Source: a virus (lineage: Duplodnaviria; Caudoviricetes). Taken from it: DNA of 64,000 bases. Position numbers and translations under genes: made by a program. The stretch spans positions 1-64,000 of the IMG/VR virus record IMGVR_UViG_3300031867_000035; one strand, written 5' to 3'. Positions 29,041 through 50,700 of the stretch are shown here, piece by piece (within the stretch, counting starts at the first letter, position 1; the number at the start of each line of letters is the position of its first letter). The notes beneath the pieces are model-generated. The model ran no database searches. It was given only the letters and a program-made list of their open reading frames with translations, and had not been told where the DNA came from.

Positions 29041-30174
29041 CTAATAATTTTCTGCTTCTTCTCTAGTACGGAAGAAATGAATACCTGCGGTACACTCTAC
29101 ATTGTACCTTAAATCGAATTCATCAGGACATACTATATCACCTACCTTATATGTAAATTTTCCATCATACCAAGCAAGAGCCTGGTCATAAGTATTACCA
29201 TTATTATCAGTAATACTTATAACTTCAGCCTTATTGGTTCTGCACTTACCATTGTTAATCGAAAAAACAACAGCTCCTTTAGGAATACGAAGTTCAACAA
29301 TTAAATCATTAAGACATTTCTTATAACCTGTCATAGGATTATCTACTATAAGTCCGAGACGAATACTCTCCTTATCATCTAGGGAGGTACTGTTTAAAGT
29401 TGCATAATTAAAATCTGCCTCATCTAAATCTGCACCTTTTAAAGTAGCATAACTTAAATCAGCATACCTTAGATTAGCTTTAACAAAGTAAGACCTAAAG
29501 AAATTAGCACATTCACAATAAGTGTTCGCCAAGTCCGTACACTTAAAGTTCGTGTACTTAGCAGTAACGGATGCTAAATTAGCCTTAAATAAACCAGCCT
29601 CAGTTAAATTAGCGTGCATCAAGTCAGAGTGACTTAAATCTGCACCTACTAATTTAGCCTTTGTTAAATCAGCGGATTCTAATTCTGCATAACTTAACTT
29701 AGCATCATTTAAATAAGCCTCACTTAAATTAGCCTGAATTAAATGAGCATAAGTTAAGTCAGCACCAGTTAAATTGGCTTTAAACAATTTAACTTGATTT
29801 AAGTTAGCGTGCCTTAAACTAGCCTCACTTAAGGAAACATAACTTAAATCTACATTAGAAAAATAAGCAAAATTTAATTTTGCTCTTACTAAATTAGCAT
29901 CATTTAAATTGGCGTTGCTTAAATTGACATCTGTTAAATCAGCTTCTACTAATCTAGCGTGCCAGAAATTAGAGTTAATTAAAGTTGCACAACTTAAATT
30001 AGCCTGAGTTAAATCAGCGCCAATAAAAATAGCTCCTTTTAAATTAGCGTGACTTAAGTCGATACCTCTTAAATCTGCATTAGTAAAGTCAGCACAAACA
30101 CCTCCTTTACCTGCTAACCACTTATGATGATTAGCTAAAATTCTTTTTAATTCTGTCTTTGTTATTTTTCTCAT
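29041..30174 (-). CDS. pentapeptide-repeat protein with DUF5758-like C-terminal domain (paralog 2)
   Basis: same architecture; start MRKITK after gaggag. Confidence 0.9.
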   Translation of the reverse strand: MRKITKTELKRILANHHKWLAGKGGVCADFTNADLRGIDLSHANLKGAIFIGADLTQANLSCATLINSNFWHARLVEADLTDVNLSNANLNDANLVRAKLNFAYFSNVDLSYVSLSEASLRHANLNQVKLFKANLTGADLTYAHLIQANLSEAYLNDAKLSYAELESADLTKAKLVGADLSHSDLMHANLTEAGLFKANLASVTAKYTNFKCTDLANTYCECANFFRSYFVKANLRYADLSYATLKGADLDEADFNYATLNSTSLDDKESIRLGLIVDNPMTGYKKCLNDLIVELRIPKGAVVFSINNGKCRTNKAEVISITDNNGNTYDQALAWYDGKFTYKVGDIVCPDEFDLRYNVECTAGIHFFRTREEAENY

Positions 30175-30249
30175 AACAATTTCTCCTCGCCTGCTATATT
30201 TTTTTGTTAAGTATAATGACCGTTGGTTTAGCAGTCTTGCCATTATACT

Positions 30250-30332
30250 TTGAGTAATTAAATACTCAATTAGTAGTATGGATTATTTCTAACCCATACT
30301 ACTCGGTTGAATATTTAATTATTGCATTCAAC
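30250..30332 (-). ncRNA. three-hairpin intergenic RNA motif, copy A
   Basis: hairpins TTGAGTA/TACTCAA, AGTAGTATGG/CCATACTACT, GTTGAAT/ATTCAAC; homologous to 32032-32109. Confidence 0.5.
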
Positions 30333-30343
30333 ACAAACTTAAA

Positions 30344-30559
30344 TTAAAATTCTCTTATTATTTCATTTCTCTTCATAGCATCATATAATCTGTCTAAGAC
30401 AGACTTATCTTCTAAAGCAGCTATCTCTCTAACGGTTAAGAAATACTTTTCTCCACCAAAATTATCTCTGGTGTAATAATACCAAAGTCCATCTCTTCTG
30501 TCTTTAAAAGCGTGCCATACTTCTTTTCCTACATTTAATGTTATCTTTAATTCTTTCAT
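30344..30559 (-). CDS. hypothetical protein
   Basis: ORF with RBS gaggag. Confidence 0.7.
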   Translation of the reverse strand: MKELKITLNVGKEVWHAFKDRRDGLWYYYTRDNFGGEKYFLTVREIAALEDKSVLDRLYDAMKRNEIIREF

Positions 30560-30580
30560 TATTTTCTTCTCCTCTTCTTT

Positions 30581-31450
30581 TTAAAAATAATATTTTTCTG
30601 CTTCTTCTTTTGTTTTAAAGAAATGTATACCCGAAGTACAATCAACATTATACATTAAACTAAAACTATCTGGTTTTATAACATCACCTACCTTATAAAT
30701 AAATTTAGAATCATAAACCGATATAGCTTCTTCATAAGAATTACCTTCACTATCGGTGATACTAATTACTTTAACTTTATTAGTTCTACAATCAGTGTTG
30801 TTAATTGAGAACACAATCGCACCTTTAGGAATACGTAATTTTACTATGCGATTTCCAGAGCACTTCTTATATCCTATCATAGACTTTTCCAAAGTTATGC
30901 CACGGCGTATCTCCTCCTTCTTATCTAATGAAGCATCGTGTAAATCTGCACCTTGTAAATCTGCACCTTGTAAATCTGCACCATTTAAAAAGGCTCTTAA
31001 ATTTGAACTTATTAAAGAAGCGTAACTTAAGTTTGCCTTTCTTAAATCTGTTCTAAATAAACAAGCATCATTTAAATCTGCACCTTGTAAATCTGCATTT
31101 TGAAAATCAGCCAAACTTAAATTTGCACGATATAAATTAGCTTCTTTTAAAATAGCATAATTTAAATCAGCCTTTGTTAAATCAGCTCCTTTTAAATTTG
31201 CGTTACTAAAGTCTGCAAATTTAGCAGAATAAATATTTAAATAAGCATAACTTAAATCTGCACCTTTTAAATTTGTATTATTTAAAACCGCATTAAGTAA
31301 TACTGCCTTATATAAAGAAGCATTAGATAAATCAAGACCACTAAGGTCTACATTCTTTAAATTAAAACGCTGTCCATCTGGCATATTATTAAGCCACTCT
31401 ACGTGCTTCTCTAAAAGCACATTCAATTCTTTTTGTGTTAATGTTTTCAT
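30581..31450 (-). CDS. pentapeptide-repeat protein with DUF5758-like C-terminal domain (paralog 3)
   Basis: same architecture; includes 15-bp tandem repeat TAAATCTGCACCTTG at 30941-30982 (ADLQG). Confidence 0.9.
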   Translation of the reverse strand: MKTLTQKELNVLLEKHVEWLNNMPDGQRFNLKNVDLSGLDLSNASLYKAVLLNAVLNNTNLKGADLSYAYLNIYSAKFADFSNANLKGADLTKADLNYAILKEANLYRANLSLADFQNADLQGADLNDACLFRTDLRKANLSYASLISSNLRAFLNGADLQGADLQGADLHDASLDKKEEIRRGITLEKSMIGYKKCSGNRIVKLRIPKGAIVFSINNTDCRTNKVKVISITDSEGNSYEEAISVYDSKFIYKVGDVIKPDSFSLMYNVDCTSGIHFFKTKEEAEKYYF

Positions 31451-31540
31451 TTTCTTTTCCTCTCATATTTTTATAATATATTTTTTTGCCTGCAGCCCAG
31501 GCTCTGCTTCCAAGGCTGGCCGTTTACGCCAGCTAAATAA

Positions 31541-32025
31541 GGGACCCTAGTGTTTGAATAATGAAGCAGTCGGGTCCGAATCCAAAAAACTTTTCCTGTA
31601 GAAATAATGATACCCTATTGTTTTAATAATCTAAGTAACAATAGTATGTACAGAAAAAGTTTTTTTAAAACGGACCCTAGTGCTACAAAATCAATCAAGC
31701 TAGGTTGCATTAAGCGTTTTCATAGGGAAAAATGAGGTTTCAATATTTTTTCAGTGTATTTTCATAATTGTTTTCATAGATTTTTACCGAAATGCTAACA
31801 CACTCGACACAAAATCCACACTAAACAATTAGTAAAACAACACAAAAAATAAATTTAGCACTCGTCTAGTTAGAGTGCAACCTCGTTTTTGCCAGAAAAA
31901 GTGCAAAAGCAACCTAGCTTGTTCGAAATTAAAACAGTCGGGTCCGTGCACATCTCGGAGACATTTGTCATTCTCAGAGACATACATAGCTAGACCCTGC
32001 TGTAATAACTTTGAAACACTAGGGT
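31541..32025. other. non-coding element of nested inverted repeats (structured RNA or origin/packaging region)
   Basis: perfect IRs 31544-31555/32014-32025 and 31696-31708/31909-31921; long hairpin 31572-31677. Confidence 0.55.
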
Positions 32026-32031
32026 TTCAGA

Positions 32032-32109
32032 TTGAGTACTTAAATACTCAATTAGAGATACGGACTTTTATCAAGCCCGTGAATCTCTCGGCTGAGTATT
32101 CAAATACTC
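32032..32109 (-). ncRNA. three-hairpin intergenic RNA motif, copy B
   Basis: 23/24 identity to copy A over the first hairpin; covarying middle helix. Confidence 0.5.
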
Positions 32110-32133
32110 TTTAGGCCTTATAAGGCTAAAAGC

Positions 32134-32463
32134 TTAGGCTCTAAATGTGTTCCAGAAATAATATAGGAACATATCTACACAGTTACGATAATCCTTATCA
32201 CTTACTGTGAAGTCGAAATCATCTGTTCCATAGAAAGTAATTCTGTACTTGTCATTAAAGTAACTAACTGCAATCCAATCTTCAGATGGAGTGTAATCTA
32301 GAGAACTAGGGATACACTCATCATTGAAGTAATCCTTCATACATACAGGTCGAACGTAAGCAGGCTTACCACCCTTAGGTGCCTTAGCCTGAGCAGCTAC
32401 ATAGCGAGCGAATGATTCGCCGATTAACATTGTTAAATCTAATAAAAAGTTTTGTTTTGTCAT
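32134..32463 (-). CDS. hypothetical protein
   Basis: ORF with RBS gaggagg. Confidence 0.75.
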   Translation of the reverse strand: MTKQNFLLDLTMLIGESFARYVAAQAKAPKGGKPAYVRPVCMKDYFNDECIPSSLDYTPSEDWIAVSYFNDKYRITFYGTDDFDFTVSDKDYRNCVDMFLYYFWNTFRA

Positions 32464-32469
32464 ATTTGT

Positions 32470-33143
32470 TCCTCCTCACCTTGTTATGTTCAAGGCTGGT
32501 CTAATCTGCCGACCATCTCGCAAAATAAATGTAAATATTATATCTATAAGATAAAACTGATATCTTTAGTGTCCGTCAGTGGCGGACAGATAAAGCAATC
32601 ATAGAATAATCTGATAACCTTATAAGAGAGAGCTATAGTATCTCTACTATAGCATTCTCTTTCTTAGCCCATCTCAAAATGTCTTTGTAAGATGCAAAGC
32701 CTTCAGAGACTTTACTAGTAATCCTTTTATTACCTATAAAGTAATGAATTCCTCCATCTCTGGCATTTTGAAACATTGGTATAACTTCTGTTTCATATTC
32801 CTCATAGAAACAGGTTACGCCAAAAGCATCTAATACAATCTTATAAGATTTCATATTTTTGTTCTCCTTCTAGAGAGAATTAATCTCTCTTATAAGATTA
32901 CCAGATTCTATCACCAGCAGTAGGGTAACGAGTTTTTTCACGGCCTTTATCTTGACCATCGTCTCTCTAGCGAACAACCAGGGGACATCTCGATATGGTT
33001 CGACACACGCAATGTCATTCCTGTGTTCAGAGAAACTTTCTTATTCTGCTCTATTGCTCGAGCACTTTCATTATCTTACGCTCATTCATCAGACGTTCAG
33101 ACGGCACTAGGCCTTCTCGCAAATCTAATGCGTAAGCTGGTGA
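32470..33143 (-). ncRNA. candidate large structured RNA with embedded ORF
   Basis: closing stem 32911-32918/33136-33143, 24-bp stem 32608-32631/32884-32907, further hairpins; TATAAT on minus strand at 33165-33170. Confidence 0.45.
32633..32854 (-). CDS. 73-aa hypothetical protein enclosed by a 24-bp inverted repeat
   Basis: RBS aaggag, ATG, TAG. Confidence 0.7.
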   Translation of the reverse strand: MKSYKIVLDAFGVTCFYEEYETEVIPMFQNARDGGIHYFIGNKRITSKVSEGFASYKDILRWAKKENAIVEIL

Positions 33144-33428
33144 AAAGATTTATATATTAATAGGATTATATCCTAGGGTTTTTTATTTGTTATGTTGTTG
33201 AATATTATTATCCTTACTCGTATTAAATATATTTTTTTTGTTAGGTTGTGGTTTGTTTTGTATATATTTAATGGGTCGCTCAGATAAGAGGTACACCCCC
33301 TAAATAATAAACACAACTCAACATAATATATATATTAAATGGGATACAACATCAACATAATATATTTTTAGGACGGGTCACAGAATTTTCAGGATTTTTC
33401 AATTCACCCCTAGGTAACTTTCTCAAAA

Positions 33429-33473
33429 ACATTTGTCATTCCCCTTGACATTTGTCATTATTCGTGCTATACT
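33429..33473 (+). promoter_or_regulatory. sigma-70/A promoter with direct-repeat operator
   Basis: TTGACA(33445)-N17-TATACT(33468) with TG; ACATTTGTCATT at 33429 and 33448 flanking/overlapping the -35. Confidence 0.75.
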
Positions 33474-33535
33474 CTTAGTGTATAGAGGATAACTCCCTGG
33501 GGTAAACGCCCAGGAACTGCAAAGGGGGTAACACA

Positions 33536-34616: not shown

Positions 34617-34899
34617 AGTTACAGATATATTATTAAACCCACTTGTCAAAACAGATTACACAGTGGTCATTGATGATGAAGAAGAAAGCTTAAACAATGC
34701 TATCATCGAGATTCTAAGAGCTGAACAGACAGAGAAGGAAGACTTAAACACTTTAATCAGGAAGTATAATTCAAGTGCTAGAAGATTCAACAGAGGTCTA
34801 TCGAATACTATTTTCATTTACACACATCCTGCAGAGGGTGTAGTGCTAAGAACCGTCATAGAGATTTATAAACAGATAGCAAAGGAGGTGAGCCTATAA
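34603..34899 (+). CDS. hypothetical protein
   Basis: ORF, RBS gagga. Confidence 0.65.
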   Translation: MVKIKVTDILLNPLVKTDYTVVIDDEEESLNNAIIEILRAEQTEKEDLNTLIRKYNSSARRFNRGLSNTIFIYTHPAEGVVLRTVIEIYKQIAKEVSL

Positions 34900-35135
34900 T
34901 GGATTTCGGTGAGGCATTAAGACTTCTAAAGCAAGGCGGAAAAGTTGCAAGACACGGCTGGAACGGCAAAGGTATGTGGCTAGAGCTACAGAGACCTGAT
35001 GTACATTCTAAGATGACTCTACCTTATGTGTACCTTAATTACCCTGTAGGTGATAAGTACCACAATGGTTGCAGAGTTCCGTGGTTAGCATCACAGACAG
35101 ATATGCTAGAGGAAGACTGGGAGGAAGTAAAGTAA
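34899..35135 (+). CDS. tad2: DUF2829 / Tad2-family nucleotide-signal sponge (anti-defence)
   Basis: MDFGEALRLLKQG..VARHGWNGKGMWL..PWLASQTDMLEEDW parallels SPO1 Tad2. Confidence 0.88.
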   Translation: MDFGEALRLLKQGGKVARHGWNGKGMWLELQRPDVHSKMTLPYVYLNYPVGDKYHNGCRVPWLASQTDMLEEDWEEVK

Positions 35136-35718: not shown

Positions 35719-38700
35719 ATGGAAAGAGATTATAAAAACAACAACATTTTTTATGAGAATACCGAAGATTTAAATATCGGTAAGACAAATCAGAAGCCTG
35801 CAGAAGTAGAGCAGTCTACTCCAAAGTTTTCTATCAAGCTTGACAAAGACGAGGAAGCTGCTAGACAACAAGGCTTTTTAAATTTTAATTCAGGTGTATC
35901 AATGATTGATACTTCTGAGTATTCACAATCAGATATTCGTTCAATGTTAGGTTCAAGAACTAAAGTTGATTTATCTGATACAAAAGAAGATACGGGTACA
36001 TATAATACTACTAAAGCTTTAGCAGAAGATTATGTTAGTCAAGACGAGGAATATATTACTTCTGGTAGACTGTGGAAAGATATATATGGTTCAACCGCCT
36101 ATGCAGAATTAAAACATAAATGTGGTTTAAGTAAAACTGATTCATATACAGATTATTATAATAAAACAAAATATATACCTAAGGGTTATGAGATAGAAGC
36201 TAAGCTGTTATTAGCTGAAGAAAAAAGAATGAATTATTATATGGAATATAAGAAAGGTAATATATCAAAATCAGATTTCTTATATCAAGCTTATGGTAAA
36301 GATTTAATGAAAGAGGATGGCGTTGATTTATCTTCTCCATTATATTGGTACAATAAAGCAAAGAAGAATGATTTTACTAACCCACTTGATAGTGATACAT
36401 TCTTATCACAATTAATTACAGATTCAGAAAAATTATGGCACGCAGAAACTTGGTATCAATCTGCTGCTACAAGAAATATAGGTTCAACTTTAGCAGGATT
36501 ATCTACTGGTTCAGAATTATCAGAAGAAAGTTTCCAAAATGTTTTTAAACAGCAAGTTGAGGCATTAAAACCATATTTCGATAATGATGTTAAAAAGATT
36601 ATGACATACTATCAAGCTGGTTTCTTAGGCTCAGCATTCTCACCAATGATAGACATTGACGGAGATGGTAAGTATGACTATTACTATCATAGTGATGGTA
36701 AACTATATGCAGTAGATGGTTCATCAGGAACTGGTTCATCTACCTGCTCTATTGTTTATAATGATGATGGTTCAGTACATTCAGTACAAGTACACGAAGC
36801 TGTTGATGGTTGGTTAGATTCTTTATGGGATGGATTCACAGGATTCTTTATCGGCTTTGCAGATTTATTTGCATTAATCCCAGGACTAATTAATACAGAT
36901 GCTATGGCTAATTATGAAGCTTGGAAGAAAAGAACAATAGCAGATGAAGATAGAGTAGTCTTTGATTCTATGGATAAATGGAACGGAGATGACTGGGGTA
37001 ACGCTGTAGCTGAAGGTGTAGGTACAATCGCAGGTATGGTTCTATTATTAGTACTTACTTATGGTATAGGTAACGCAATATCAGCAAGTGGTGAAGCTGC
37101 AAAAGCTGGTATGGACGCAGGTCTACAAGGAGCAGTTAAAATAACTTCCCAAGAAACAGCTACTACCTTTGCAGAAAATATTGCTAAAGAAGCTGCTGAT
37201 AAATTCACAAGTAAAGCTTTACAAAGAGCTTTTATGGATAACGCTTTAAAAGCTGCAACAAAAGAAATCAGTAAGAATGTTGCCCTAGATGCTGCTATTA
37301 AAACAGCTTTAAAAGAAGGTGCTAAAAAATTTGGTGCTAGTGCTGCGAGAGCTACTGCATTAAATATAGGACGTAATGTCGCTGCTGCAGTTGTAGGCAA
37401 AGGTGGCTTCACTACCACAATCTCTCAAGCTAAGGGTGGTACATTATTAAATACTACATTAGCTAAAGTAGCTCAAAGAAGTTCAAGTACAGGTTTAAAA
37501 AAGATTGCAGCTAACGCTTGGGTACGTAGTAGTTTAACTGCAACTGAATTAGCAGTAAGAGATTATATTACTGTAACAACACAATTAAAAGCCAAGAACA
37601 AAGCTCTACAATATTTAGAGTATGCTACTAAAGGGGAAGTAAAAGCTTTAAGTGATGGTGAGATAGCTGGCAGAGCTTGGCTTGTTGCAGGAACAGATTT
37701 AGTTATTTCAACTATGTTCCGTGCTGTAGGTTCGCAAGGTGCTACATCTAGATTCGTTAAAGACTCTGATACTTTATTAAAAAACATAAATGCTAACACT
37801 GCAGATGTCATCAATAGGTATGCTCAGCATTTAAAAACATATTGTAGAATAGATGCTGCTTTTGATATTTTTGAAAACATCACTACTTCCGCTGTTCAAG
37901 CTGCAGCAAGTAATCCTTATGCTAAATTAGGCTCAGAAGAATCTTGGGCTACAGCTATGCAATCAATAGTTAACCCTGCTTTCATAGCAAGTAACTTATA
38001 TGCTACATATAACAACTTAGTATCTTGGGGTGGAAGAAATGGTGCTCCAGTAAGTACTTCTATTTATGATGATAGAGTGGAAGCTATTGCAAGACAGATT
38101 AATATTAGTGCCAATTCTTTGGGAGACCAATTAGATACATTAAGTGAAGCTTTAGTAGCTAAGAATTCAAATGTTTCTAATGTTATTGAAATACAAGAAT
38201 CCTTAGATAGAGTTAAGCAAAAAACAATGGAAACATTAAACAATTCTTCTAACTCTAGAATTGATAACTTACTTCAAGCTGCACAAGACTTGGATACTTT
38301 ATTTACAGAAGATGTAGTTGCTGCTAACAAGAAAGAAATTCTTGATAGTTTTAATATAACCCTTTCAGAATATAATCAAATAAAGGCCTTAATTAAAACT
38401 TATAATGATAACAATCCAGATAAGCCTATTGGTTTAATTACTGGTAAAGTCTTCTACTCTGCTCAAAAAGAAAATGATGCTAATGTAGCTAAAGCATATA
38501 AGGCTGCTTTAGACTTAATGACCAAGAGAAGCACTGAGCTTAAAGCTAAAGAAGAGCAGGTAGCTAAAATCTTCCTTAAAGGTGCTAGATTTGTTATGAC
38601 TAAAGCAAATGAAGTATCTTTAAAATATGTAAACCAATTAATTGCCGAAACAACTTTCAAAACTTCTGGTGTTCATCTAGAAGAAAGATATCAAAAAATA

Positions 38701-41700
38701 GTAAATACTTTTATAGCTAAAAGATTTGAAATGCTAACTGATATAACTACAGAAGGTAATGAAGAATTAAGAAACAAAGAGTTAGCAGAATTAGAGACAT
38801 ATTTAAATTCTGAATACTTTAAGTTCCATTCTTTATCTACTTCATCAGCTACAGCAGATGTTTCTTATACAATGGTTCCAGTTTATGATGATAAAGACAA
38901 TACTAAAATTAAAACATATAAATTGGATAGCACAGCTACAGGAGATAATATTCTTATTAAGTTATTAAGTAACTACGATAAGAACAAGGCTGTTATTGAA
39001 GCTCTATGCAATAGATATCATCTTATTGATGTAGTTAAAAATAACGATGGTACTTTAACTATTAATACAGCTAATATGGCTCCTTGGTATGCTCTTGAAT
39101 TAGATAATTCAAAGAACAATCAATTATTAGCAGATATTTCTAATAATAAATATTTAAAAACATTTATGGACGTTATAGACTCAGTTGCATATATGTTTGA
39201 AAATTCAGACTTAAATGAATTAAATGTTGTTGATTATGATGAACCTTTAATTCTAAAGTTAAGAGTAGCTACAGGTAACACTAATGGTTCTAATGAACAA
39301 GAATATATCAATATTTATTTGATACCAAGTAAGATAAGTGGCAACATCGATACAGGTACAAGTTATGGTGATGTTGCTAATAGACTTATGGCACTTCAAG
39401 GTATCTTATACTCAACATACGGTTTATTCAAACAAGCAGCTGATGGTGTAGTAAATAATGAATCAGCTGTAAAATATCTAGCACAATTAGGTGCATTACT
39501 TACAGAAGAAAAAGCAATGGACCCATTCTATGATTTCTTAAAACTATTTAACTCAGATAACGAAGAGGAGAGAAGATTAGCTATAGAAGAGAATCTACCT
39601 AAAGCTGTTATGGCTATATTAAGTAGATGTAAATTTAATATGGTTGATGGTAAAGAGCCTTCTGATTCTGTATTAACTAGAAAGCAATTATTAACATTTG
39701 TTAAAGCTGGTGTCTTTGGAGAAAAAGGTGAGTATGCCTTATTAAATAAAATTATTACAGAGAATTCTTCTGGTAAAAATGGTAATGCTTCAGCTAATAA
39801 TATTGCTAAGATTGCTCAAGAAATTTTAGACTATGTTAATACTATAGACAAGATTGAGGGTACTCTAAAAATCTTAAACGACTATGCAGAAAATACTAAA
39901 ACTGATTTATCAGCTAATGAAATATCTAAGCTTAAAGATTGTGTTAACACATTAAAAAATAATCAAGACTTAACCGATTCTTTAGATGCAGATGGTATGT
40001 TACCTGACACAATCAAAAGATTATTAAAAGAGAGTACACTTGAAAATTTTTGGCAAGGGTCCCAAAAAAGAGACAGTCATTTGGAAGCCCTATCAAAAAA
40101 CTTATTAAGACTGTCAGACAAAAACATCCAAAATCAGGAAGAGCTAAAGACGCTTCTTAAAAAATTCTTAGATGAAGATTTGATGAGTATTCAAATTGTT
40201 AAAGATAATCCTTTTGAGTTATCAAAACAATTCTTAATTAGATATTTCAACTCTTTTGATAGCTATAAAAACTCTTTTGATAGCTTTAAAAAAGTATCAT
40301 ACTTCTTAGAAGCATTAAATACTTCTGATTTTAAAGACTTCTTAAAAAATCCTACAGATTTTATTAATGATTATAATGCCAAAAATTCCGCACCTGGATA
40401 TAATATTAAAAATTTCGCTCCTGACTTAAAGTTAGAAGACTTTGGTCATTTATTTATTACTAACGCAAAAGGTGTTAGAAAGACAGATTATAATTTCTTG
40501 TTAGGCTTAACATTAATAAATAAATTCAGAAATGATTTAAGTAAGAATGATTTCGTGGAAGCTTCTTTCTATGATACTGAAACTTACTTAGATTCTTTAT
40601 ACAATAACGTGATTAAAGACCCTAACTCTGTTGAGTTCCAATATATCAGTAGACTATACAAAATAGCTACCGACAAAGATTTAAATATTCATATGCTTAG
40701 CATATCAGACCCAACAGCTAAAAATTACAAGAGACCTTTCAGTACTTTAATGGTACATAATGCTGATGGCACAACAGAGAGTATTGGGGATTTAATTTAT
40801 AAAAGTAATAAAGCTGCATCTGTTCTTGTAGAATCTATAGTAGATGATGCTATAGAAAGTAAGATGGAACTATTACAAGATGGTATAGACTATTACTGGA
40901 GGGATACTACAGTTACCCCAAAACAAAATGTTATTGAGATAGATATGCTAAACTTCTTACCAGCTAATTTAAGAATAGCTTTAAAGTCTTTCTTAAATAG
41001 TAGTGACCTAGCTACAAAGATGGGTGCAGAAGCAAAAATTAAATCTGAAGAACTTGCTAAAGAATTTAAAAATTTATTAGCAGGACATTCTTCAAATGCT
41101 ACTTATTCACAATATAAAGCTTATAAAGTTTTACTTTCTGATTGTTTAGCTTCTGGTAATTTCATATTAAGATATAACGTAGATAACGCTGCATCTATGA
41201 ATAGTTTAAAAGTTTTCTTAACTTCTTGTGGTTATGATAACTTTGATGTTGATGCTGCAAGAAACGGCATATCTGAAATAGAAGGATTAAATTTCAAAAC
41301 AGTAGATACTCATAACATTAATTCAACTTTAGCAGCAGAAAAATTCTATCGTGCTGCAAGATTATATAAAACAAAGTATGGTATTGCAAAGCCAATATTA
41401 GGTGAGAAGATTAAAAAGAACTACACCAATGTTCTATTCAATTTATTCTCGGGAATAACAAAATTTAATGATGATACTAATATACAGCTTCTTGATGAAG
41501 ATGGTAAAGCAATTCCTTATTACAGTATTATTTATAAAAAAACTGACCCTAACAAAGCATACACTTTCGTAAATGCTTTTGGTAATACTGAACAAGCACG
41601 TTCTGAAAAAGGTACATTAAGTGGTGGTGCACAGACATTACAATATATAAATAAGTATAGAGGATTAGGTATAGATGTTAAAGATGATAACTTATCTTTA

Positions 41701-44700
41701 GATTCAAAATCTTTTAAATCATTTACAATAGTTAGATTAGCAGAAAAGACTGCTGAATACTTAAACAACTTAACAGGTAAACAAGCTCAAACTATTCAAG
41801 TAACAATACCTAAAGCTGAGCAAGACACATTCAAAGAGATGTATGAGGATGGTAAAGGTTTCTTTAAAATAATGGGTGAACCTGAAGGAGATACATTTAG
41901 ACTAGAGCCTACTTATAAATCTGCAGAAGAGTTCTTGGCTTATGTTAATGAAGAAGGCTTTGATATAAGACAAGTCTTACCTGTTGTTTGGAATAATGAT
42001 AAATCAATTAAGAATACAGAGTTTAGAGCTTATGAATATATAAGTAATGAAACTTTGTTTTCCGAGTTAGCTAATTTAAAGATTGAAGGATTAAAAACTA
42101 TTGATGATTTTATTAACTTCCAACCTATCCCTAAAGATGAAATATATAGTTTTGATTCTAAAGAATATTCAGATTTCTGTTTAGCACACTCTAATAAGAA
42201 TGTAGGAAATATTCTACAAGATTTGGGTGATATAAAAAATAATTATTATTTAGCTTGTCTAAAATATGAATTAGGACTTTCAAAAGCTTATTCAGATTAT
42301 GCTATTAGTTATCTAGGCCAAGATGCAGACTTAATTGATTTAGCTAATCCTAGAATTTATAAGATACTAGGTTCATTATTAAATGATGGTTCAAGTTTAG
42401 ATGAATACAAATTCAGCTACTTATTAAATAAGAACTATACTATAACAGAAGATGATGTTAATAAATTACTTAAAGCTTTAAACGAAGGTATAACTAATTC
42501 AGAAAATATCTTTCCAGAGCAAGCTACTGATACAGATAATGTAGATACAAAAAATAATTTCACTTCACTTGACGTTGAAAAACTTAACTCATCTAACAAC
42601 GTATCATTAGATATTAAAAAGGAAACTATAGCTAAATTATTAGATGTACTAAGAAACTCTGAAGATTATTTAATTACTAGATTATCAGAACCCATTGATT
42701 TAGTTCAACCAGATAATTTAATTTCTTGCTTAGCATTATTCTGCGAAAATTCTGGAGGTTCATTGTCTATTCCTATGGAATACTTAATGCGTTCATCAAA
42801 GAAGCAACGAGAAGCATTCTTTACATTCTTAAATGCTATTATCGCAAATCCAACAGAATATAATTTTAGTGATGATGATATTAAAAAGTTAAACGATTTA
42901 ATAACATTATTAAATACTAAAATAGATTTAATGACTAAAATAAATCCTACTAAAGATGTAGATGTTAAACCTGCAAGAGTTATATTTGAAAAAAATGCTG
43001 TAAGTGCTCCAAGAGTAGGTGTAGAACCAAAAGCTGGTTTCTTAAGTAATGGTACTGGTAAACTATCGAATGCACAATTACAAAGAATAACAGATTATAT
43101 AGTGGCAGCAGAAAATAATAAAGTTGACGTTGCACCATTCATTAAGTTATCTAGTATTAATCCAAATGATAGTGTTGTAGAAACTCCTTTCAAACACAGC
43201 TTAATCAAATTATTAAATGCAACAGTATGTAAAAATTCCGATAAACCAGGTTCAACTATGGTTTATAATATGGATAGTGATGAAGCTATAGTTAATGCAT
43301 TAGTAAGTGTTCTTGCTTTTACAGAAAACACTAAACTATTATTGCAAGATTTAGGTGTGCCTGAGATTCAAAAAATTCCTTTAGATATATTAATGGAGTT
43401 AGGTTTAAAAGCAAATCTATTAACTACTGGTGCTGACTACCAAGCAGAGTTCGCATCATCCCTTATTCTAAAATGGAATAAAGAAACTAACGAATACTCA
43501 ATAGTTCCTTTAAGAACTTCATCATCAGATACAGAACAAAGTTTATATAGATATTTCTTAGGCTTAAAGACTGGTGATTCTGATGTTAATGATATAACTT
43601 TAAAAACAATAAACGAAGATATAGCTAATAATCCTACCCATTATTTCTTATTATCTTCTTCAAAAAATGCTTTCTTAGAAAGTCCTGATGGTTATAACGA
43701 AACAACAAGACTTCTATATTTAAATGATATCAATGTTCAAAAGAGCTTAAGAGAAAATATGGTTAAAAAAGCAATTATAGCTAGAGATGGATTTGTACTT
43801 AATGTTCCTGGTGAAAATGATTTAATGAATTTATTAGATTCATATTATAATGTTCACGCAGTAACAACTTATGATGTATGGAGAAATGTTGTTGATTCTC
43901 TACGTACATTAGGCGTATCAGATTCTGTTGCAGACTTATTGTATCCTACAGTAGAGAGTTTATATGTAGGCAACCCATCTTCTTTAAACGACCAATGGAT
44001 ACAAGATACTCTAGCAGAATTCATTGACAGCTATAAAGGTAAAGTTCCTTCAGTACAATTCAAAATTTTCTCAGATGCAATAGCTTGGGGAATAACTAAT
44101 AGGGTATTAAAAGCTCAAGATATAGCAGCTTTAAAGAATAATGAAATTGAAATAGAGGCTGCTTATAGAGAAACTCAATTAAAAAAAGGCATAACTCAAA
44201 AAGAAATATCTAATAATACAGAACGTGTAGAAGCTATAATAGATTCTATCAAATCTAATGATACAGATATAATAGATTATGCAAAGCAAAATATTAAATC
44301 ATTAGATAAGGATACTCAAGTATATCTAATTCAAAAATTATTATTAGATAGAAAAGATGGTTTTGATTTATATGCTATTCTTAATATGAGCTCAAAAAAT
44401 AAAACGTTATTTGATATTTCAGAAAGTATAAGACCTACTATTAATAACGAATTATCAAATGACTGGGTTCATTCTCCTAAGAATAAAAGTAAAAACATTA
44501 CTGCCACAAATGTAGTATCAGATACAAATCACGTTGTTTATGATGCTGAATGGTTTATACCAGAAAAAGATAAGAAAAATAGTTTTACAGATGTATATCA
44601 AATAGGCTTATGCTTACGTAAAGCTGTTAATGATAAAGATAAAGCTAGAATTATTGATAGCGATACATTAAATAATTTAGAGAAGCATAATATTTTAATT

Positions 44701-47700
44701 AAAAAGAATATTATGAACAACAAAAATAAATTATATGTTGAAGCTAAAGATTCTTATGATGCAAAGATAAAAGCTTGTACAAGTGGTAAAGATACTTATG
44801 TAGACTCAAAAACAAATGTTATTTACCATATAATCGATGGTGGTCCTAATTCTACATTAGAGGATGATGTTAGATTAGCTTATACTACATTTGCTAAAAT
44901 TATAAATGATAATGATGTATCTGTAATTATGTCTTACGGTGGTAAGAATGATAATAGAGAAGAAATAAGTGATAACAACTTAATAAGACACTGGTTAGGT
45001 GATGCTTTCTTTAATGATGTAGATGAGCTAGATATATTAAATGATGTAGCTTACAAAGTGTGGTCACGTACTACAGAAGATATGACTTCTTATTCAATGG
45101 ATTCAATGCGTAGAGAAGGTAAGATTAATTTAAATAACTCTCTTTTAGAACACGATGCAGTATCTGATAGTTTAGATGAATATGAGTTATTTGTTAAAAT
45201 AATTAATAACAAAATTAATATAGATAACTTATACTTAAAGCCTTTATCTGACATTGCAGAATTATTTGGTGAAGATGTAGATTACAGAAATTGGTCTGAT
45301 GATTTCAAGAATACTTTGAAAGCTGTTAAATTTAATGAGTTAAAAGATATAACAGATAACTTAAAAGATATTGTATCTAAAATAGATATAGATACTTCAG
45401 TTTTTACAAGAAGTAATGAAGCTATAAAATCTGTTATGGATGCTTATAAATTAACATTCGAACACGTATGGAGAAGAATGGAATTTAAAGATTTAGAGAA
45501 AGTTAGAAATAACTTCCTAGATATTTATGATTCAAGTTATAATTCAACTTACTTTGCTTCTATTAAGAATAAAAAACATAGAACAGAAGTTAGAAACATT
45601 CTTCTAGGCATTGTAAACGAAAGATATGATTTAAATGAAGGTTTCTCTGCTGTATTGGAAAGAGACCCTGTAACTAACAAATTTAGAACATCTGATATTA
45701 AAGGTGTAGAAAATTTAAAAACCGCTTTAAAGTATATGACTTCTATATTAGCCGAAGCCGCAAGACTATATAAAGAGGATACAAAAAATCCTTATAATCC
45801 AAAATATATTTCAAACAGAAATAAAACAAAGTCCTTCTATTCAGAAGATGCACAGACTATAGCAAGATATATTGCTGAAGCTAAAACAACTTTTGAAATT
45901 ACAGACTTAGATGCAAGACGTAGTAAAAGAAATGACTTTAAGCAAAATGAGAAAACTTTAACACAGGCTGTAATAGATTCAAAGTTTAATTTAGATAATA
46001 ATACATCTGAAGCCTTAAGAGATATATATTCAATGTTAAGAGATGAATCAACTGATTTGCTTTCATTGAAAGATTATAAGCATACAGTAACTAACCAAGA
46101 TTTTTATATCCAAATTGCTAGACCTTTGGCTAATGTATTAGGTATTAATGTTCAAGATTCTGACGCTACAGCATCAGATGAAGTTGTTTCAAAAACATTC
46201 TCCGATAAATTAAGAGCTGCCTTATTCAATGATTTACTAAGTGTATATGGTAGAACAAATGCAGGTAAGAGAACTCACGAGCAAATAATAAAAGATAATA
46301 CTTACAATGGAATAAGACATACCTTAATAGATAAAGCAGATACTTATAAAAAAGGAATGATTGAGGCATTTACTTCTAGTAAGGGTTTATTTACAGGTAA
46401 CTTAAGAACTAAAACTGCTTTATGGTCAATGGGTCACGAAAGATATAAGAAGACAATGACTGGTGAATATGGTACTTTATATATAGGCGAAAAGCTTCTT
46501 ACTTCTAAGAAAGCATTTAAAGATTTATTTGGTATGTATAAAGCCACATATAAAACAGATAGTAATGGTAAGCAAGTTGTTGACTATGATGATAACAATC
46601 AAAACACTTTCTATACTTTAGTATGGAGACAACCATTACAGCAAGAAACTCCTATTCAACTTATGAAAGTTAAAGTTGTTGATGGTGATACATTCTCTAT
46701 GACAACCACAACTGCCGATAACTTCTTTAATGGAGACTTCGATGGAGACCAATATTTCTTCTCTCATCCTTCTCAAATAACTAATACTAAAGAAGCTAAG
46801 AGATTATTTGAGCTTCAAAACAAACAGACAGAATTATTCTATAATCTATTTAAGAAGGATAATAAATTAACGCTTACTAATCAAATCTTATTAGAAGAAA
46901 AATATAGAAATTTAGCTAGAGATGTATTCTTAAGCAGTAACGTCCAAAGTGCTTTTAAGGCTATATTTGCTAACATTGAATTATCTAGAGATAGTACAGG
47001 TAAAGCAACTAAAGTTAAAGACCTTCCTATATTCTTAGGTGATGCCACATTAATAGATAAATTTAAACAGGAATATTATAAAGCCTTTGATACAATAGTT
47101 ACTTCAAAAGAATATAATCAACTTTCTATTGAAGATAGAGAAACATTAAGAGATTCATTCCTCGAAAACTTTGGTGTAAGAATAATTAAAACTTCAAAAG
47201 GTACAACAGTTCTTTCTGACAATCCATTCTATCGTGAGGATAGAGATACTACTATGAGATTAAAAGCAACTAGAAAATTCTATATGCTAGATAACCTTTC
47301 TAATAGTGGTATGGATGCTCCAGAAAATGGCCAGTTGGCAAAGAACTATAAATGGCAAAAAGGTTCTGTTGATATGAATGAGGCTTATAGATTATTCTAC
47401 AATTCAACATTCTCTTTAAAAGAAGATGACTTACATTTATTTAGTAACTTACTTGCTAAAGAAGGTAACTCATTAAGCTCTGTAAAGATAAACAAATATC
47501 TAGATTCTTTATCATCTTTAATAGGTAAAGATATGGTTGACTGGGCTAAAGAATATGTTGACAAAGAAATAATAACATACGTTGAAGAACAGCATAAGTT
47601 AGGGGTTAAAGATGCTCAAACTTATAACATAGTTGTAAGAAGATTATCTAATTTAAGTAATGCTATTCAGCAAAATATAATAACTTCAAAAGAATATAAT

Positions 47701-50700
47701 GATGTATTAAATGCTTTATTACCAAAAGTTTTAGCAGTAGGTAATGAAGAAGATTACCAAAAGTATAAAGCACTTCATTCCTTTATGTATAATGAAGGAT
47801 ACATATCTGATAAAGACCCTAGAGGATTCTCTTCAGAAGTTCTTCAAAAACCAGAAGGTGATAAGCTTAACAATGGTATAGATATTCTTGTTGAAGATAC
47901 TTATCTATTTAATAAACTATTTGATGATGAACAAAGAAAAGGATATATAAATACTATAAGTAATGACTCAGGAACTTTACAAGATTTATATCTTAACTTT
48001 ATATTCAGAGGTGATAATAAAAATGCAAACTTTGAGTATAGAGATGGTGCAGAAATTCTTACAAGAGATACTATCACTTCTTTAAAAGGTAAGAGCAATA
48101 AGCTTCTAGGTTTAGGTTCAGCTTATGTTGCTATTGATATATCTGAAGATGGTTCATTAACAGATACTATTGCTTTATTCAATAATGGTCAGAACTCTTT
48201 ATCATTTACTAAACCTGTAGAAATAAATTTCTCTGGATTAACTAAAAAGCAAAAAGATAATCTATTAAATCTAATTAAGAATACACGTGGAAATTCTATT
48301 ATCAAGAGTGAGGATATAAGTAGAGCACTTAATACAAACTTTGATAATAAGCCTTATCAAATAGCAGGCTTTGTAGATTCAGTGGGTAATTCTCTATTAA
48401 ATAATTTAAACAATTTATCTCCTTCAACTTTAAACCACGCTAAATTAATTCTTTTAAACAGAACGCCACTATACGCTATGCTAGAAACAAATGAAATTAA
48501 ACTAGGTATGGTAGGTTCAAAAGCTTTAAAAGGTACAGTAATGAATGGTTTAAATCTAGAAGGCAGAGGAGAGAATACTATATCAGTAAAAGAATCTAAA
48601 AAGAATAAAGATGTAGTTGCTACTGCTAAAGACAGAACTAAAGCTATTAGACCAGACTTAGCTATCAGTGCCAGCTTATTCAAAGATATTAATAGTGATT
48701 ATAATCTAGATTACGAAGAAGTACTTACAACTACTGATGGTAGATATAGAATAATAAAAGTAAACGACTTAGCAATTCTTAATGCTTTAAATTTAGATGC
48801 GCAAGATAGAGCAAGCGAACGTTACATAGATACAATCGGTATAGTTCAAGGTGCCCACGGTACAGGTTCTCTATTCAGTTATGGTAATATGTTCTTAAGA
48901 TTCGATGCTGATAATAACAAATGGGAATTCGACCCTCAAGGCTATAATGAATTAAAAGATAGATTACATTATCATAATTTAGAATCCTCTTATATGGATG
49001 GTAATGGTGCAAGAAATGTAAGACTACTAAGAATAGCTTACTTACTAGATGCTTTATCAGAAGATAAGAGACAAAGAGTATGTATGGAGATTCTTGGTAA
49101 TACATCAGTTCCTACAATAGAGGCCGCCTTAGAATGTATTTATTCTGCAGGTGATTTAGGTGGAGATTTTGGTGAAGACCTTGAAGCTCATATCTGTGAC
49201 CAATTATCAAAAGAAGAGTTTGAAAAACTAGCTCTTAGACTTAATTCAACTTCTAAGAAAAATTTATTAGGTAGAGTTGCATTTAGTGAAGAAATGAATG
49301 ACCAATTAGTCAATAGGTATGCTACATTCTTTAATGAGGATGTTAATAATCCTATAATTAAAAAGCATCAAAAACCTTCAGACAATGTGAGAGTATCTAA
49401 TGTTAGAAACTATTCTGATAATGCTGATTACTTAGCTAGACACGAAGGTAGTACTCACGATACTAATACTTCTTATGTTTCAAAAATTTCTTTATTAAGA
49501 ACTATTCTTGAAGAAAACGGAGGCTTCTTAAATCTTGCAACATTAAAATCTGCAGCTGATGAAGATATAATAAATATAGCAGATGGCTCACTAGGTACTT
49601 TATATAATGGCTATAAGTTTACTGATGCTAGAGAGAGCTTAGCCTTAGACCCTTATGATGAAGAAAAACAATCATCTAAAAAGGCAGGTAACAAAGAGCC
49701 TTCTTCTCAATATAATGAGGTAAGAGATAATCAAAGATTAATACCTTTATTATCTAAAAGTGTTTTAAGTGATAGTTATAAAGATTCATTAACTAATGCT
49801 AACGCAGATATATTATTAAATAACAATTTATATCAAGATGCAGCTGCTTATAATCAAGCTAGATTTATGCTACCTTTCTTCTCAGAAGGAACTGATTCAC
49901 AGATATATGATGCTACAAACCTATTCTCTAATAGATTCGTTGACTCATTACATCAAAAATATCCTACAATGAATGAAGAAGGTCAGCTAAGAATAGGTAC
50001 TAAAACATTCAAACCAGAAGTAAATAAGGAAACTAATATGCTTAGCCATTTAACAATGGAAGAAGAGGAACAGAGAATCATTCAAAACTCTAAATCTCCT
50101 AAGCAAGTTAAGTTACTATTAGAAAAGCATAAAGAGATTACTGACCAGCTAACTAAAGAAGATTATGAAACTTTAGGTTTAACAGACCAATTAGCAGTGG
50201 CAGACTTAATTTCTAAAACAGGTAATTCTAAAATAATGTCTTTCTTAAATGAGCTTTGTAAAGAGTATGACATTAAGACAGAGTATGAAAACTATAATAC
50301 TACTCCTGTCCAAGGCGACCCATTCTCCTTACTAAGAGCTATAAGAAGAGATAATAATGATGTACTACACGTTGCTGAATTCTATTCAGATGATAATGGT
50401 GTTAAGCTAGTAAACTCTTGGCTTAGAAGCTGGGGTTTCAAATCTTCAGATAATAGAGATATATCTTTAGGTAATCAAACAATCAATGCCAGAAATAAAT
50501 TCGCTGATGTAAAAGACCAATTACTTGGTGATGATTATGCCTTATTAATGTATAATGCTAAGCACAACAAAGCTTCCTATATGTTATTAAATCAGTATAT
50601 GAATGCTGAAGAATTAATTGAAGCTTATGATGAATTAACTTATAGACAAGATGTCTGGGTAAAGACTTTAGGTAGAGACAAATATACCGAGTATTTAAAT

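Follow-up and report, generated by a model that had tools for sequence, protein, structure and literature searches.

The genome studied here belongs to a crAss-like phage, and the window, by which the whole analysed stretch of 64 kb is meant, lies inside a 76-kb record that is 76% complete. Two copies of an element, A and B, each of approximately 70-80 bases, were found in the early-gene region. Both were located on the minus strand, the one that serves as sense strand for the early genes, and both sit between co-oriented genes (Table 1), each after the stop of a variable early gene and at a module-swap junction of close relatives; in the relative L010 the stop codon falls within the 5' arm of the element. 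The phage uses Shine-Dalgarno sites together with sigma-70-type promoter matches, and a Tad2-like anti-defence gene is located nearby. The early block was also found to contain a second long double-stranded stem, composed of 24-nt inverted repeats flanking a 73-aa ORF, which occupies different locations in the phage under study and in the relative L006.

Table 1. Positions of the two element copies, their parts and the surrounding features.
Feature	Position	Strand	Remarks
Pentapeptide-repeat/DUF5758 gene 2	29041..30174	-	ATG 80 nt to the 3' side of element A
Second hairpin of the A spacer (12-bp stem, 18-nt loop)	30209..30250	-	between element A and the Shine-Dalgarno site of pentapeptide gene 2; sequence and fold
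Sigma-70-like promoter match, TTGAGT-16-TATAAT	30242..30269	-	10/12 matches; same in L008 and L010
Copy A, invariant 22-nt 3' arm "P" (AATTGAGTATTTAATTACTCAA)	30250..30271	-	same in L008 and L010
Element A, interrupted long hairpin, 29 bp	30255..30321	-	folds, covariance-model match (100.1 bits) and pair table
Element A, outer stem	5' arm 30307-30321, 3' arm 30255-30269	-	
Element A, internal loop	CCG 30304-30306 opposite AA 30270-30271	-	
Element A, inner stem	30290-30303 with 30272-30285	-	GAAA loop 30286-30289
71-aa early gene (P0002)	30344..30559	-	stop 22 nt ahead of element A
Conserved ORF-free element, ~580 nt	31451..32031	-	begins directly after element B; context, outside the repeat
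Copy B, invariant 3' arm "P"	32032..32053	-	21/22 identical to copy A
Element B, interrupted long hairpin, 32 bp	32034..32109	-	folds and covariance-model match (84.2 bits)
Element B, outer stem	5' arm 32092-32109, 3' arm 32034-32051	-	
Element B, internal loop	CCG 32089-32091 opposite AA 32052-32053	-	
Element B, inner stem	32083-32088 and 32073-32080 with 32054-32067	-	UC bulge 32081-32082; loop 32068-32072
Small hairpin directly following the 109-aa gene stop	32111..32131	-	ahead of element B; positional counterpart of the relatives' GACGAG...CTCGTC hairpin
109-aa early gene (P0001)	32134..32463	-	stop 24 nt ahead of element B

Both copies were found at the positions where the earlier note had placed them. 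The segment it had called hairpin 1 (TTGAGTAnTTAAATACTCAATTAG) was identical at 23 of 24 bases (30250-30273 versus 32032-32055), and the motif CTCGGyTGArTATTyAA was likewise common to the two copies. The 20-mer of hairpin 1 had two exact matches in the window, where only 0.16 were expected even when up to three mismatches were allowed, and a pattern search tolerating up to two mismatches gave no other good match anywhere in the 76-kb record. The covariance-model search of the window also returned two copies only. When the window was compared with Rfam, tRNA alone passed the gathering score, and the element was unmatched there as well as at an E-value threshold. The sub-threshold matches at the element were to miRNA-precursor models (18-25 bits against cut-offs of 85-102 bits) and reflected a generic long hairpin. 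A small ORF inside the element was also considered and rejected: the inner-stem ATG of L010 opens a 55-aa frame, which in copy A is closed after two codons.

The minimum-free-energy fold was a single interrupted hairpin of 29-32 bp, consisting of an outer stem of 15-18 bp, a CCG/AA internal loop (3x2, or 2x1), an inner stem of 14 bp and a loop of 4-5 nt. This number of pairs is above the minimum of approximately 20 bp of double-stranded RNA required for an RNase III site, a hairpin that often has an internal loop. Copy A folded with -33.1 kcal/mol (z = -6.3) and copy B with -46.2 kcal/mol (z = -7.5), and none of 200 shuffled sequences was as good in either case. No other 90-nt window of the genome, on either strand, was as stable as copy B, and in the early block the combination of 29-32 pairs with 9-12 unpaired bases was seen only in hairpins A and B. 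The earlier note had described three hairpins in each copy. The quasi-palindromes do exist, but hairpins 1 and 3 also pair with each other, so that the lowest-energy fold is one long interrupted hairpin; the variable base "n" of hairpin 1 covaried with the opposite arm (A-U to U.G) and with nothing inside hairpin 1. The three-hairpin conformer was close in stability to the long hairpin for A (-31.2 versus -32.9 kcal/mol) and L010 (-33.7 versus -36.4 kcal/mol), but not for B (-31.1 versus -40.9 kcal/mol).

Two further variants of the element were detected in metagenome relatives, L008 and L010. Among the 28 core pairs of the four sequences, which represent one narrow lineage and include two sequences only one base apart, 12 varied, nine of them on both sides, and no pair was broken. 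In the model-fitted alignment 97.4% of the cells were paired and seven pairs were altered on both sides; this pairing was reached by none of 500 shuffles, while slid controls gave 30-40%. RNAalifold independently predicted the same consensus. The middle helix indeed kept its minus-strand pairing despite the change in sequence, with a G.U in the same place, and the compensation was broader than had been noted, as six of the 14 inner pairs were altered on both sides between A and B. One pair followed the classical path from U-A through U.G to C-G.

The wobbles were all G.U on the sense strand, at all six positions, and the antisense fold was consequently weaker by 3-15 kcal/mol. The sense and antisense energies were -32.1 and -28.7 kcal/mol for A, -31.7 and -24.3 kcal/mol for L008, -34.2 and -18.9 kcal/mol for L010, and -40.9 and -25.4 kcal/mol for B, and the covariance-model scores were 84-100 bits for the sense strand and 30-49 bits for the antisense strand. 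The element is a conserved cis-element, as had been proposed, and its secondary structure is constrained on the minus (sense) strand. The asymmetry at the six G.U sites could also come from a hairpin in single-stranded sense-strand DNA, or from a strand bias in C-to-T mutation. The 22-nt 3' arm is nearly invariant and the 5' arm drifts, for which structure alone gives no explanation.

One reading places the constraint in duplex DNA: the 20-bp palindrome TTGAGTA-N6-TACTCAA would be an operator for a dimeric regulator, and the long hairpin would be a by-product of two similar palindromes approximately 60 bp apart. The palindrome has perfect 7-bp half-sites, is nearly invariant in the four copies and, in A, extends over the -35 and spacer of the promoter-like site; in B a second good palindrome lies 60 bp off. 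However, this second palindrome was not kept as an operator: its half-sites are separated by 2-4 nt in B, by 13 nt in A and by 15 nt in L010, whereas it still pairs with the 3' arm. The strongest covariation was located in the inner stem, which is superfluous for an operator, the wobble asymmetry is meaningless in duplex DNA, and no further good copy accompanies any other promoter of the 76-kb record. We therefore consider an operator unlikely.

The comparison with the relatives placed the element at the borders of exchanged genes. L008 is near-identical to the phage and has a 231-aa gene in place of the 73-aa gene, the 109-aa gene and copy B, yet it keeps everything downstream of B. L010 has a 121-aa gene in place of pentapeptide gene 3 and the 71-aa gene. 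L010 shares approximately 95% identity with A from the 3' arm onward. Within its inner stem, 13 of 28 positions are changed, and another gene stands upstream; the similarity to A resumes at the 3' arm, with a jump in divergence at the edge of the invariant arm. L010 is a mosaic: B-like in the lower inner stem (AGAGAU/AUCUCU) and at the "CAG" end of the 5' arm, A-like in the 3' arm and the downstream flank. The L008-type and the L010-type arrangements originated from one metagenome source. The element was accordingly seen at the 3' end of three different genes, of 109, 71 and 121 aa. It was absent from L004, L006 and L007, and more distant relatives with a homologous polymerase of approximately 6000 aa, 50-58% identical, lack it. 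As only two of the many early junctions carry the element and these relatives lack it, the element is accessory.

The exact 22-mer of the 3' arm was detected neither in IMG/VR nor in 185,579 prokaryote species genomes. It was present in five JGI metagenome contigs, among which only L010 has the element; L011-L014 carry the palindrome alone, in unrelated contexts. A protein-based search of IMG/VR gave no relatives for P0001, P0002 or the N-terminus of the giant protein. A word-based search among 5.8 billion proteins found no homologue of P0001, and visual inspection showed distant positional homologues (113-114 aa) in L004 and L007. In the GenBank phage collection, tblastn found no relative of the polymerase and the blastn matches were to pentapeptide-repeat sequences only, and exact look-ups of the phage's pentapeptide proteins 1 and 2 gave no encoding contig.

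The location at the 3' ends of the 109-aa, 71-aa and 121-aa genes is also what a selfish or site-specific recombination element would show, either a miniature inverted-repeat or an attC-like site in folded single-stranded DNA marking the 3' ends of mobile cassettes. Such an element would agree with the imperfect palindrome, which has conserved ends and a variable centre with the structure kept, with the strand-specific wobbles, which are compatible with folded sense-strand DNA, and with the shifted position of the neighbouring 73-aa ORF in L006. A folded imperfect palindrome at cassette 3' ends is indeed the form of attC, although the resemblance is of form only: no attC-type core sites were seen, and the 76-kb record, 76% complete, gave no tyrosine recombinase (PF00589). 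No target-site duplication was found at the element borders, the copies are too diverged for recent transposition, and none occur in the prokaryote species genomes or IMG/VR. A miniature inverted-repeat element finds no support, there being two diverged copies, no border duplication and no matches in these two collections, and we regard a mobile element of either kind as very unlikely. Equally slim is the chance of a structure-specific recombination or switching module, that is, a folded single-strand site ending mobile early-gene (anti-defence) cassettes as a phage analogue of attC, or a bistable RNA. The bistable RNA would toggle between the three-hairpin form and the 30-bp duplex and would thereby link processing with downstream gene expression.

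The surroundings of the two copies differ. The -35 of the promoter-like site lies within the 3' arm of element A and its -10 just beyond, and copy B has no promoter counterpart, with TGAAAC at the place of the -10. A terminator scan gave no site at either copy. The tails CAAAGUAUAAU and CAAUCUGAAAC lack a U run, so neither copy is a standard terminator; an intrinsic terminator, defined by a G+C-rich hairpin followed by a U run, was rejected for both. The earlier note had also linked copy B to pentapeptide paralog 3 further downstream. This association is probably coincidental: B is part of the 3' end of the 109-aa cassette and abuts the conserved non-coding element of 580 nt, which occurs in relatives without any pentapeptide genes. 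A tandem duplication of the element plus a pentapeptide gene was rejected for copy B, because the 580-nt element separating B from paralog 3 belongs to the ancestral state of the clade, and B moves together with the 109-aa gene.

The layout around copy A resembles the PeSL (promoter-early stem-loop) cassettes of T4-type phages (PMC2839356, PMC4122927), in which a stop codon is followed by an AT-rich stretch, a stem-loop overlapping the -35, the promoter, a Shine-Dalgarno site and an ATG (PMC2839356). All of these parts, including a perfect TATAAT, are present at copy A. A composite cassette of this kind would act mainly at the DNA level, with the stem-loop attenuating read-through, the overlapping host-type promoter restarting transcription, and the repeat serving as a hotspot of homologous exchange that shuffles early modules. 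The region is hyperplastic, with the 231-aa replacement in L008 and the 121-aa replacement in L010, the element lies at indel/replacement junctions of close relatives, and the co-occurrence of both arrangements in one metagenome, the coincidence of the divergence jump with the invariant-arm edge and the mosaic element of L010 also point to exchange. In copy A, L008 and L010 the promoter is a candidate, and promoter activity and attenuation are putative. Against such a cassette, the genome has two copies versus approximately 50 PeSLs (two in the 64-kb window and none further in the 76-kb record), copy B lacks a -10 element, and there is neither a terminator-type U-tract nor a G/C-rich stem. Recombination alone also fails to explain the eight two-sided compensatory changes of the inner stem and the strand-specific wobbles. 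A mainly DNA-level cassette is therefore possible but doubtful.

The position in the early block also raised the question of the virion RNA polymerase. The hairpin promoters of N4 have stems of 5-7 bp and loops of 3 nt, form on the template strand and are located upstream of early genes. To our knowledge, no promoter motif has been described for crAss-like virion polymerases. One phage protein, 6082 aa long, matches RNA polymerase Rpb1 domain 2, and the elements could be a terminator read by this giant enzyme or, as the earlier note had suggested by analogy with N4, a hairpin promoter; the lack of a known motif leaves room for such a signal, as does the assay of the phi14:2 enzyme, which was carried out on denatured DNA. 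However, folding of the template (plus) strand is 3-15 kcal/mol less favourable than that of the sense strand, as follows from the sense-strand wobbles, and the size of approximately 30 bp and the place after stop codons are unlike those of N4 promoters. Neither a short template-strand hairpin nor conservation upstream of early units among polymerase-sharing phages was found: the relatives with 50-58% identical polymerases lack the element, and B is absent from the near-identical L008. The U-run needed for a terminator is lacking, and better candidates for a polymerase signal are present in the small hairpins with CGTTTAC-type loops, which have covarying stems and clade-wide conservation. A signal for the virion polymerase is accordingly highly improbable.

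Among the four functions listed in the earlier note, a putative processing site was the best fit; a regulator binding site and a decoy RNA are further candidates. We propose that the element is an RNA hairpin between cistrons, probably a processing or stabilising site of the RNase III type, and that the conserved arm probably serves in addition as a crossover point, as in the T4 PeSL cassettes; we give this reading a probability of about 0.45, somewhat short of even odds. The stem-loop would act in early messenger RNA, inside a probably polycistronic transcript that reads through the element 22-24 nt past the stop of an exchangeable early gene. There it would present approximately 30 bp of nearly continuous double-stranded RNA, interrupted only by the small asymmetric internal loop, and the most likely step would be recognition by the double-strand-specific RNase III of the host. 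A host enzyme must be assumed, as a family search of the 76-kb record found no RNase III and no dsRNA-binding domain. Cleavage would separate the upstream cistron from the 580-nt non-coding element in the case of B, or from pentapeptide gene 2 in the case of A, and how stable the new RNA ends are would depend on the leftover stem. The intercistronic sites in the early RNAs of T7 (R-sites) and SP82 operate in this manner; those of SP82 are cut by Bacillus subtilis RNase III, according to Panganiban & Whiteley 1983 as cited in PMC4838370. At the DNA level, the short identity provided by the 22-nt 3' arm at module borders may permit homologous exchange, and in copy A the same arm also carries the putative -35 of a host-type promoter.

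The organisation of early gene expression in crAss-like phages is very poorly known. In phi14:2, the long early intergenic regions are highly transcribed, and no common motif was found upstream of the early transcripts (bioRxiv 10.1101/2020.03.07.982082). The element described here is a concrete, structure-conserved cis-signal in the early block of a divergent crAss-like member. If it proves to be an RNase III site, processing of the early RNA would follow the T7 and SP82 pattern. The location of the element at swap junctions offers a testable handle on the exchange of variable early genes, including those for pentapeptide-repeat proteins, among co-occurring genomes.

Compared with known systems, the element resembles the N4 promoters as an early-region hairpin in a phage that packages a giant RNA polymerase, whereas the hairpin here has approximately 30 bp, favours the sense strand and comes after stop codons, and relatives can dispense with it. 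With integron attC sites it shares the imperfect palindrome at a cassette 3' end, the conserved ends with a variable centre, the conservation of structure over sequence and the strand-specific folding; in contrast to attC, it occurs in a lytic phage genome with no integrase found and no core-site motifs, and the exchange is equally explained by ordinary homologous recombination. Copy A is similar to the T4-type PeSLs in combining a stem-loop and a sigma-70-like promoter match between a stop codon and a Shine-Dalgarno site, and further likenesses are the hyperplastic early region, the swap junctions of close relatives and the G.T pairs in the stems, whereas two copies instead of approximately 50, a far longer and AU-rich stem, and a copy B without -10 set it apart. 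The early-RNA sites of T7 and SP82 are repeated, related hairpins between cistrons, with two helices split by a small asymmetric internal loop and a structure conserved among the copies. The element differs from them in showing no sequence similarity and no Rfam match, in its longer and more regular helices (15-18 bp plus 14 bp), in having only two sites per genome, in its cleavage being a prediction, and in belonging to a crAss-like phage, where a virion polymerase may transcribe the early genes. Nevertheless, it shares with these sites the repetition of related hairpins between early cistrons, the asymmetric internal loop and the conserved structure.

All of the sequence features described for copies A and B in the earlier note were present. 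The 20-mer of 'hairpin 1' had two exact matches, against 0.16 matches expected even at up to three mismatches, and the whole 76.3-kb record contained no third good copy. The three-hairpin anatomy proposed there stood as an alternative conformer and not as the preferred fold, since it was close in energy to the long form only for A (-31.2 vs -32.9) and not for B (-31.1 vs -40.9). 'Hairpin 1' and 'hairpin 3', being quasi-palindromes of similar sequence, are complementary to each other, and the lowest-energy fold of both copies was one interrupted hairpin on the minus strand. Its outer stem has 15 bp in A and 18 bp in B and is separated by an internal loop (5' CCG, 3' AA) from a 14-bp inner stem, which in B alone contains a UC bulge; the terminal loop reads GAAA or GAUAA. 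The fold energies were -33.1 kcal/mol (z -6.3) for A and -46.2 kcal/mol (z -7.5) for B, the latter being the most stable 90-nt window of the genome on either strand.

Relatives' contigs L004, L006 and L007 were reached through the neighbouring 394-aa protein and a CxxCxxCC protein, and the near-identical L008 by exact matching of the pentapeptide proteins and the 71-aa protein. When JGI metagenome contigs were scanned with the 22-nt 3' arm, L010, from the same source metagenome as L008, was recovered along with four chance matches of the palindrome alone. The covariance model suggested earlier, when built from the four copies, recovered exactly those four (84-100 bits on the sense strand; 30-49 bits for antisense images of the same copies), and found no match in L004, L006 or L007. 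In the structural alignment of these four sequences, which represent a single narrow lineage and include two that differ by one base, the outer stem varied at four of its 14 core pairs, three of them through G.U wobbles. The fourth, which changed from A-U to U.G on both sides, includes the one base that varies in 'hairpin 1' and so supports the long-range pairing. In the inner stem eight of 14 pairs varied, all eight on both sides, and no pair was broken in any of the four sequences, the additional homologs included. Compensation was stepwise at one pair, being U-A in A, U.G in L008 and L010, and C-G in B. The model-fitted alignment, although it misplaces the bulge of B, had standard pairs in 97.4% of cells and two-sided change at seven pairs, values reached by 0 of 500 shuffles; slid partners gave 30-40% pairing. 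RNAalifold yielded the same consensus structure. As judged from this sequence comparison, the element is a real, structure-conserved stem-loop of the RNA type.

The wobbles were G.U on the sense strand at all six positions, equivalent to A.C on the opposite strand, and the sense and antisense energies were -32.1 and -28.7 for A, -31.7 and -24.3 for L008, -34.2 and -18.9 for L010, and -40.9 and -25.4 for B. The modelled folds point to an element acting in RNA or in single-stranded sense-strand DNA. Wobbles and energies together argue against a template-strand hairpin, as an N4-type promoter requires. The N4-like hairpin promoter offered earlier was not borne out, and a signal read by the virion polymerase is disfavoured in general, because the strand, size, position and dispensability of the element all count against it.

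The IMG/VR record (32% G+C, completeness estimate 76%; the window is its first 64 kb) encodes a 6082-aa protein matching RNA polymerase Rpb1 domain 2, as well as a family A DNA polymerase, a DnaG-type primase, an SNF2 helicase and a GroEL-like protein, a predicted gene make-up that matches a crAss-like phage carrying a giant virion RNA polymerase. Eight relatives of the giant protein (P0005-P0012; 5829-6193 aa, 28-97% identity in the polymerase region) sit on contigs of about 75-79 kb and mark a distinct clade; the protein had no match in the GenBank phage collection. Directly upstream of its gene, a 78-aa protein (34899-35135, plus strand) matched the Tad2-like Thoeris anti-defence family (PF11195, E 9.7e-24). 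A conserved 7-nt loop, CGTTTAC (variants TGTTTAC and TGTTCAC), caps a set of small hairpins whose G+C-rich stems of 5-6 bp covary (CCTGGG/CCCAGG, CCTGAG/CTCAGG, GACGAG/CTCGTC, GCTGGC/GCCAGC, CGTGGC/GCCACG). These hairpins occur where the leftward early block begins and at either end of the 580-nt element, and they are better candidates for virion-polymerase signals than the long hairpin.

Genes at about 15.5-33.3 kb are on the minus strand; a divergence point near 33.4 kb separates them from a block of plus-strand genes running into the polymerase gene. Along the sense (minus) strand, the 109-aa gene is followed by copy B, a 580-nt ORF-free stretch, pentapeptide/DUF5758 gene 3, the 71-aa gene, copy A, and pentapeptide genes 2 and 1. 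Strong Shine-Dalgarno sequences precede the genes surrounding the element, and sigma-70-type promoter matches are also present (e.g. TTGACA-17-TATACT at 33445-33473).

Coordinates of the features in the window and in relatives
Feature	Window	Strand	Relatives	Remark
Copy A	30255-30321	-
Copy B	32034-32109	-
Giant polymerase gene	35719-53967	+		Rpb1 domain 2 match
580-nt ORF-free element	31451-32031	-	L004 4325-4912; L006 3900-4494; L007 758-1366; L008 1087-1666
Second ORF-free structured stretch	32855-33330	-	L004 ~3620-3900; L006 ~3280-3560; L007 ~60-360; L008 ~50-350
Small 7-nt-loop hairpins	33493-33511; 31512-31530	minus; plus-strand sense	L004 3233-3251, 4326-4344; L006 2906-2924, 3906-3924; L007 ~765-783
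73-aa ORF cassette	32608-32907		L006 ~3590-3880	flanked by 24-nt inverted repeats, 92% complementary
11-mer ATGACAAATGT	33448-33458, 33429-33439, 31961-31971	minus		3 occurrences in 76.3-kb record
AAAAAAATATA	30195-30205, 31477-31487, 33228-33238	minus		only 3 occurrences in record

The element follows a stop codon by 22 nt in A and 24 nt in B; in L010 the stop codon falls within the 5' arm. No U-run comes after A or B, and a scan for terminators reported no site at either. L008 keeps A with one change (a U-A pair to U.G) and is without B: a 231-aa gene takes the place of B together with the 73-aa and 109-aa genes, and its stop codon abuts TGAAACCCTAGTG, the sequence found directly after B in the window. 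L010 carries a 121-aa gene in place of the 71-aa gene and pentapeptide gene 3. Its copy is about 95% identical to the copy A region from the 3' arm onward, and its inner stem differs from A at 13 of 28 positions, with the lower part identical to B. L004, L006 and L007 have neither the pentapeptide genes nor the element, and at B's place, after a 113-114-aa gene, carry the short hairpin GACGAG-(CGTTTAC or TGTTCAC)-CTCGTC. On this comparison the element is accessory and lineage-specific; it is joined to early genes that can be exchanged, at their 3' end, and lies exactly where modules have been swapped. Its form and its location at the 3' end of cassettes agree with a mobile or attC-like element, a reading that is nevertheless very improbable: a family search found no tyrosine recombinase in the record (estimated to be 76% complete), the borders show no target duplications, and a search of IMG/VR and 185,579 species genomes with the 3' arm found no copies there. 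In Logan SRR9036511, the assembly is interrupted at element A, where one contig stops about 100 nt past the 71-aa gene and another begins 99 nt upstream of pentapeptide gene 2, overlapping by about 30 nt within the 170-nt spacer. Such a break would be expected from a repeat at the element, or from branching there at the population level.

The neighbouring 580-nt element showed 81% mean column identity over five genomes, with long invariant blocks, compared with only about 67-70% for the neighbouring protein in the same relatives. Its ends pair (AACCCUAGUGUUU with AAACACUAGGGU in the window, AUACCCU with AGGGUAU in relatives), and it contains long-range inverted repeats, nested in one another, together with a conserved promoter-like site, TTGCAC-17-TAAATT. 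It had no Rfam match; a large structured RNA is one candidate identity, and a site acting at the level of DNA, for instance an origin, is another. The second ORF-free stretch, upstream in the early block, is G+C-richer and conserved in all relatives; it starts with GATTTGCGAGAAG, extends to GGTGAT and likewise had no Rfam match. The 73-aa ORF, inserted at a different place in L006 and absent from L004, L007 and L008, behaves like a small mobile cassette, and its inverted-repeat arms form another long double-stranded RNA stem. Every copy of ATGACAAATGT falls in non-coding DNA of the early block: one lies within the 580-nt element, and the other two are close to the divergence point. The same 11-mer is found in L004, L006 and L007 and may be a protein-binding site. 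The AAAAAAATATA copies are likewise all in early non-coding DNA; pentapeptide genes 2 and 3 each have one just ahead of the ribosome-binding site, and the remaining copy is in the non-coding region further upstream.

In their classical form, bacterial RNase III substrates, among them the early sites of T7 and those of SP82 that the B. subtilis enzyme cuts (Panganiban & Whiteley 1983, cited in PMC4838370), are near-continuous duplexes of about 30 bp with a small asymmetric internal loop, located on the sense strand between cistrons. The element resembles these in its duplex of about 30 bp, its small asymmetric internal loop, its position between co-oriented genes and its sense strand. By this analogy, its most likely function would be that of an RNase III-type processing or stabilising site, to which we assign a probability of 0.45. 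At B, a cut would part the upstream cistron from the 580-nt element, and at A from pentapeptide gene 2; the stem left behind would then govern how stable the RNA ends are. The host is assumed to supply the cutting enzyme, since family searches found no RNase III or dsRNA-binding domain encoded in the 76.3-kb record.

The 3' arm is invariant while the 5' arm drifts, a contrast that structure alone cannot account for. A DNA operator, an unlikely alternative, would fit the 3' arm alone; it fails for the 5' arm, where half-site spacing ranges from 2-4 to 15 nt, and would not need the covarying inner stem. A decoy RNA for a defence system is a further, hypothetical reading. The invariance is best explained by a putative second, sequence-level role of the 3' arm, as a promoter -35 in A and as a short identical stretch for homologous exchange. 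The -35 of a TTGAGT-16-TATAAT promoter match lies inside the 3' arm in A, L008 and L010; B has no -10 at the corresponding place. The PeSL cassettes of T4-type phages perform such a second role (PMC2839356, PMC4122927). The element matched none of the described families, and membership of PeSL is not claimed: here there are two copies per genome, B is without a -10, and the roles are predicted from sequence. The element belongs to a known functional kind, the intercistronic or regulatory stem-loop cassettes of phages.
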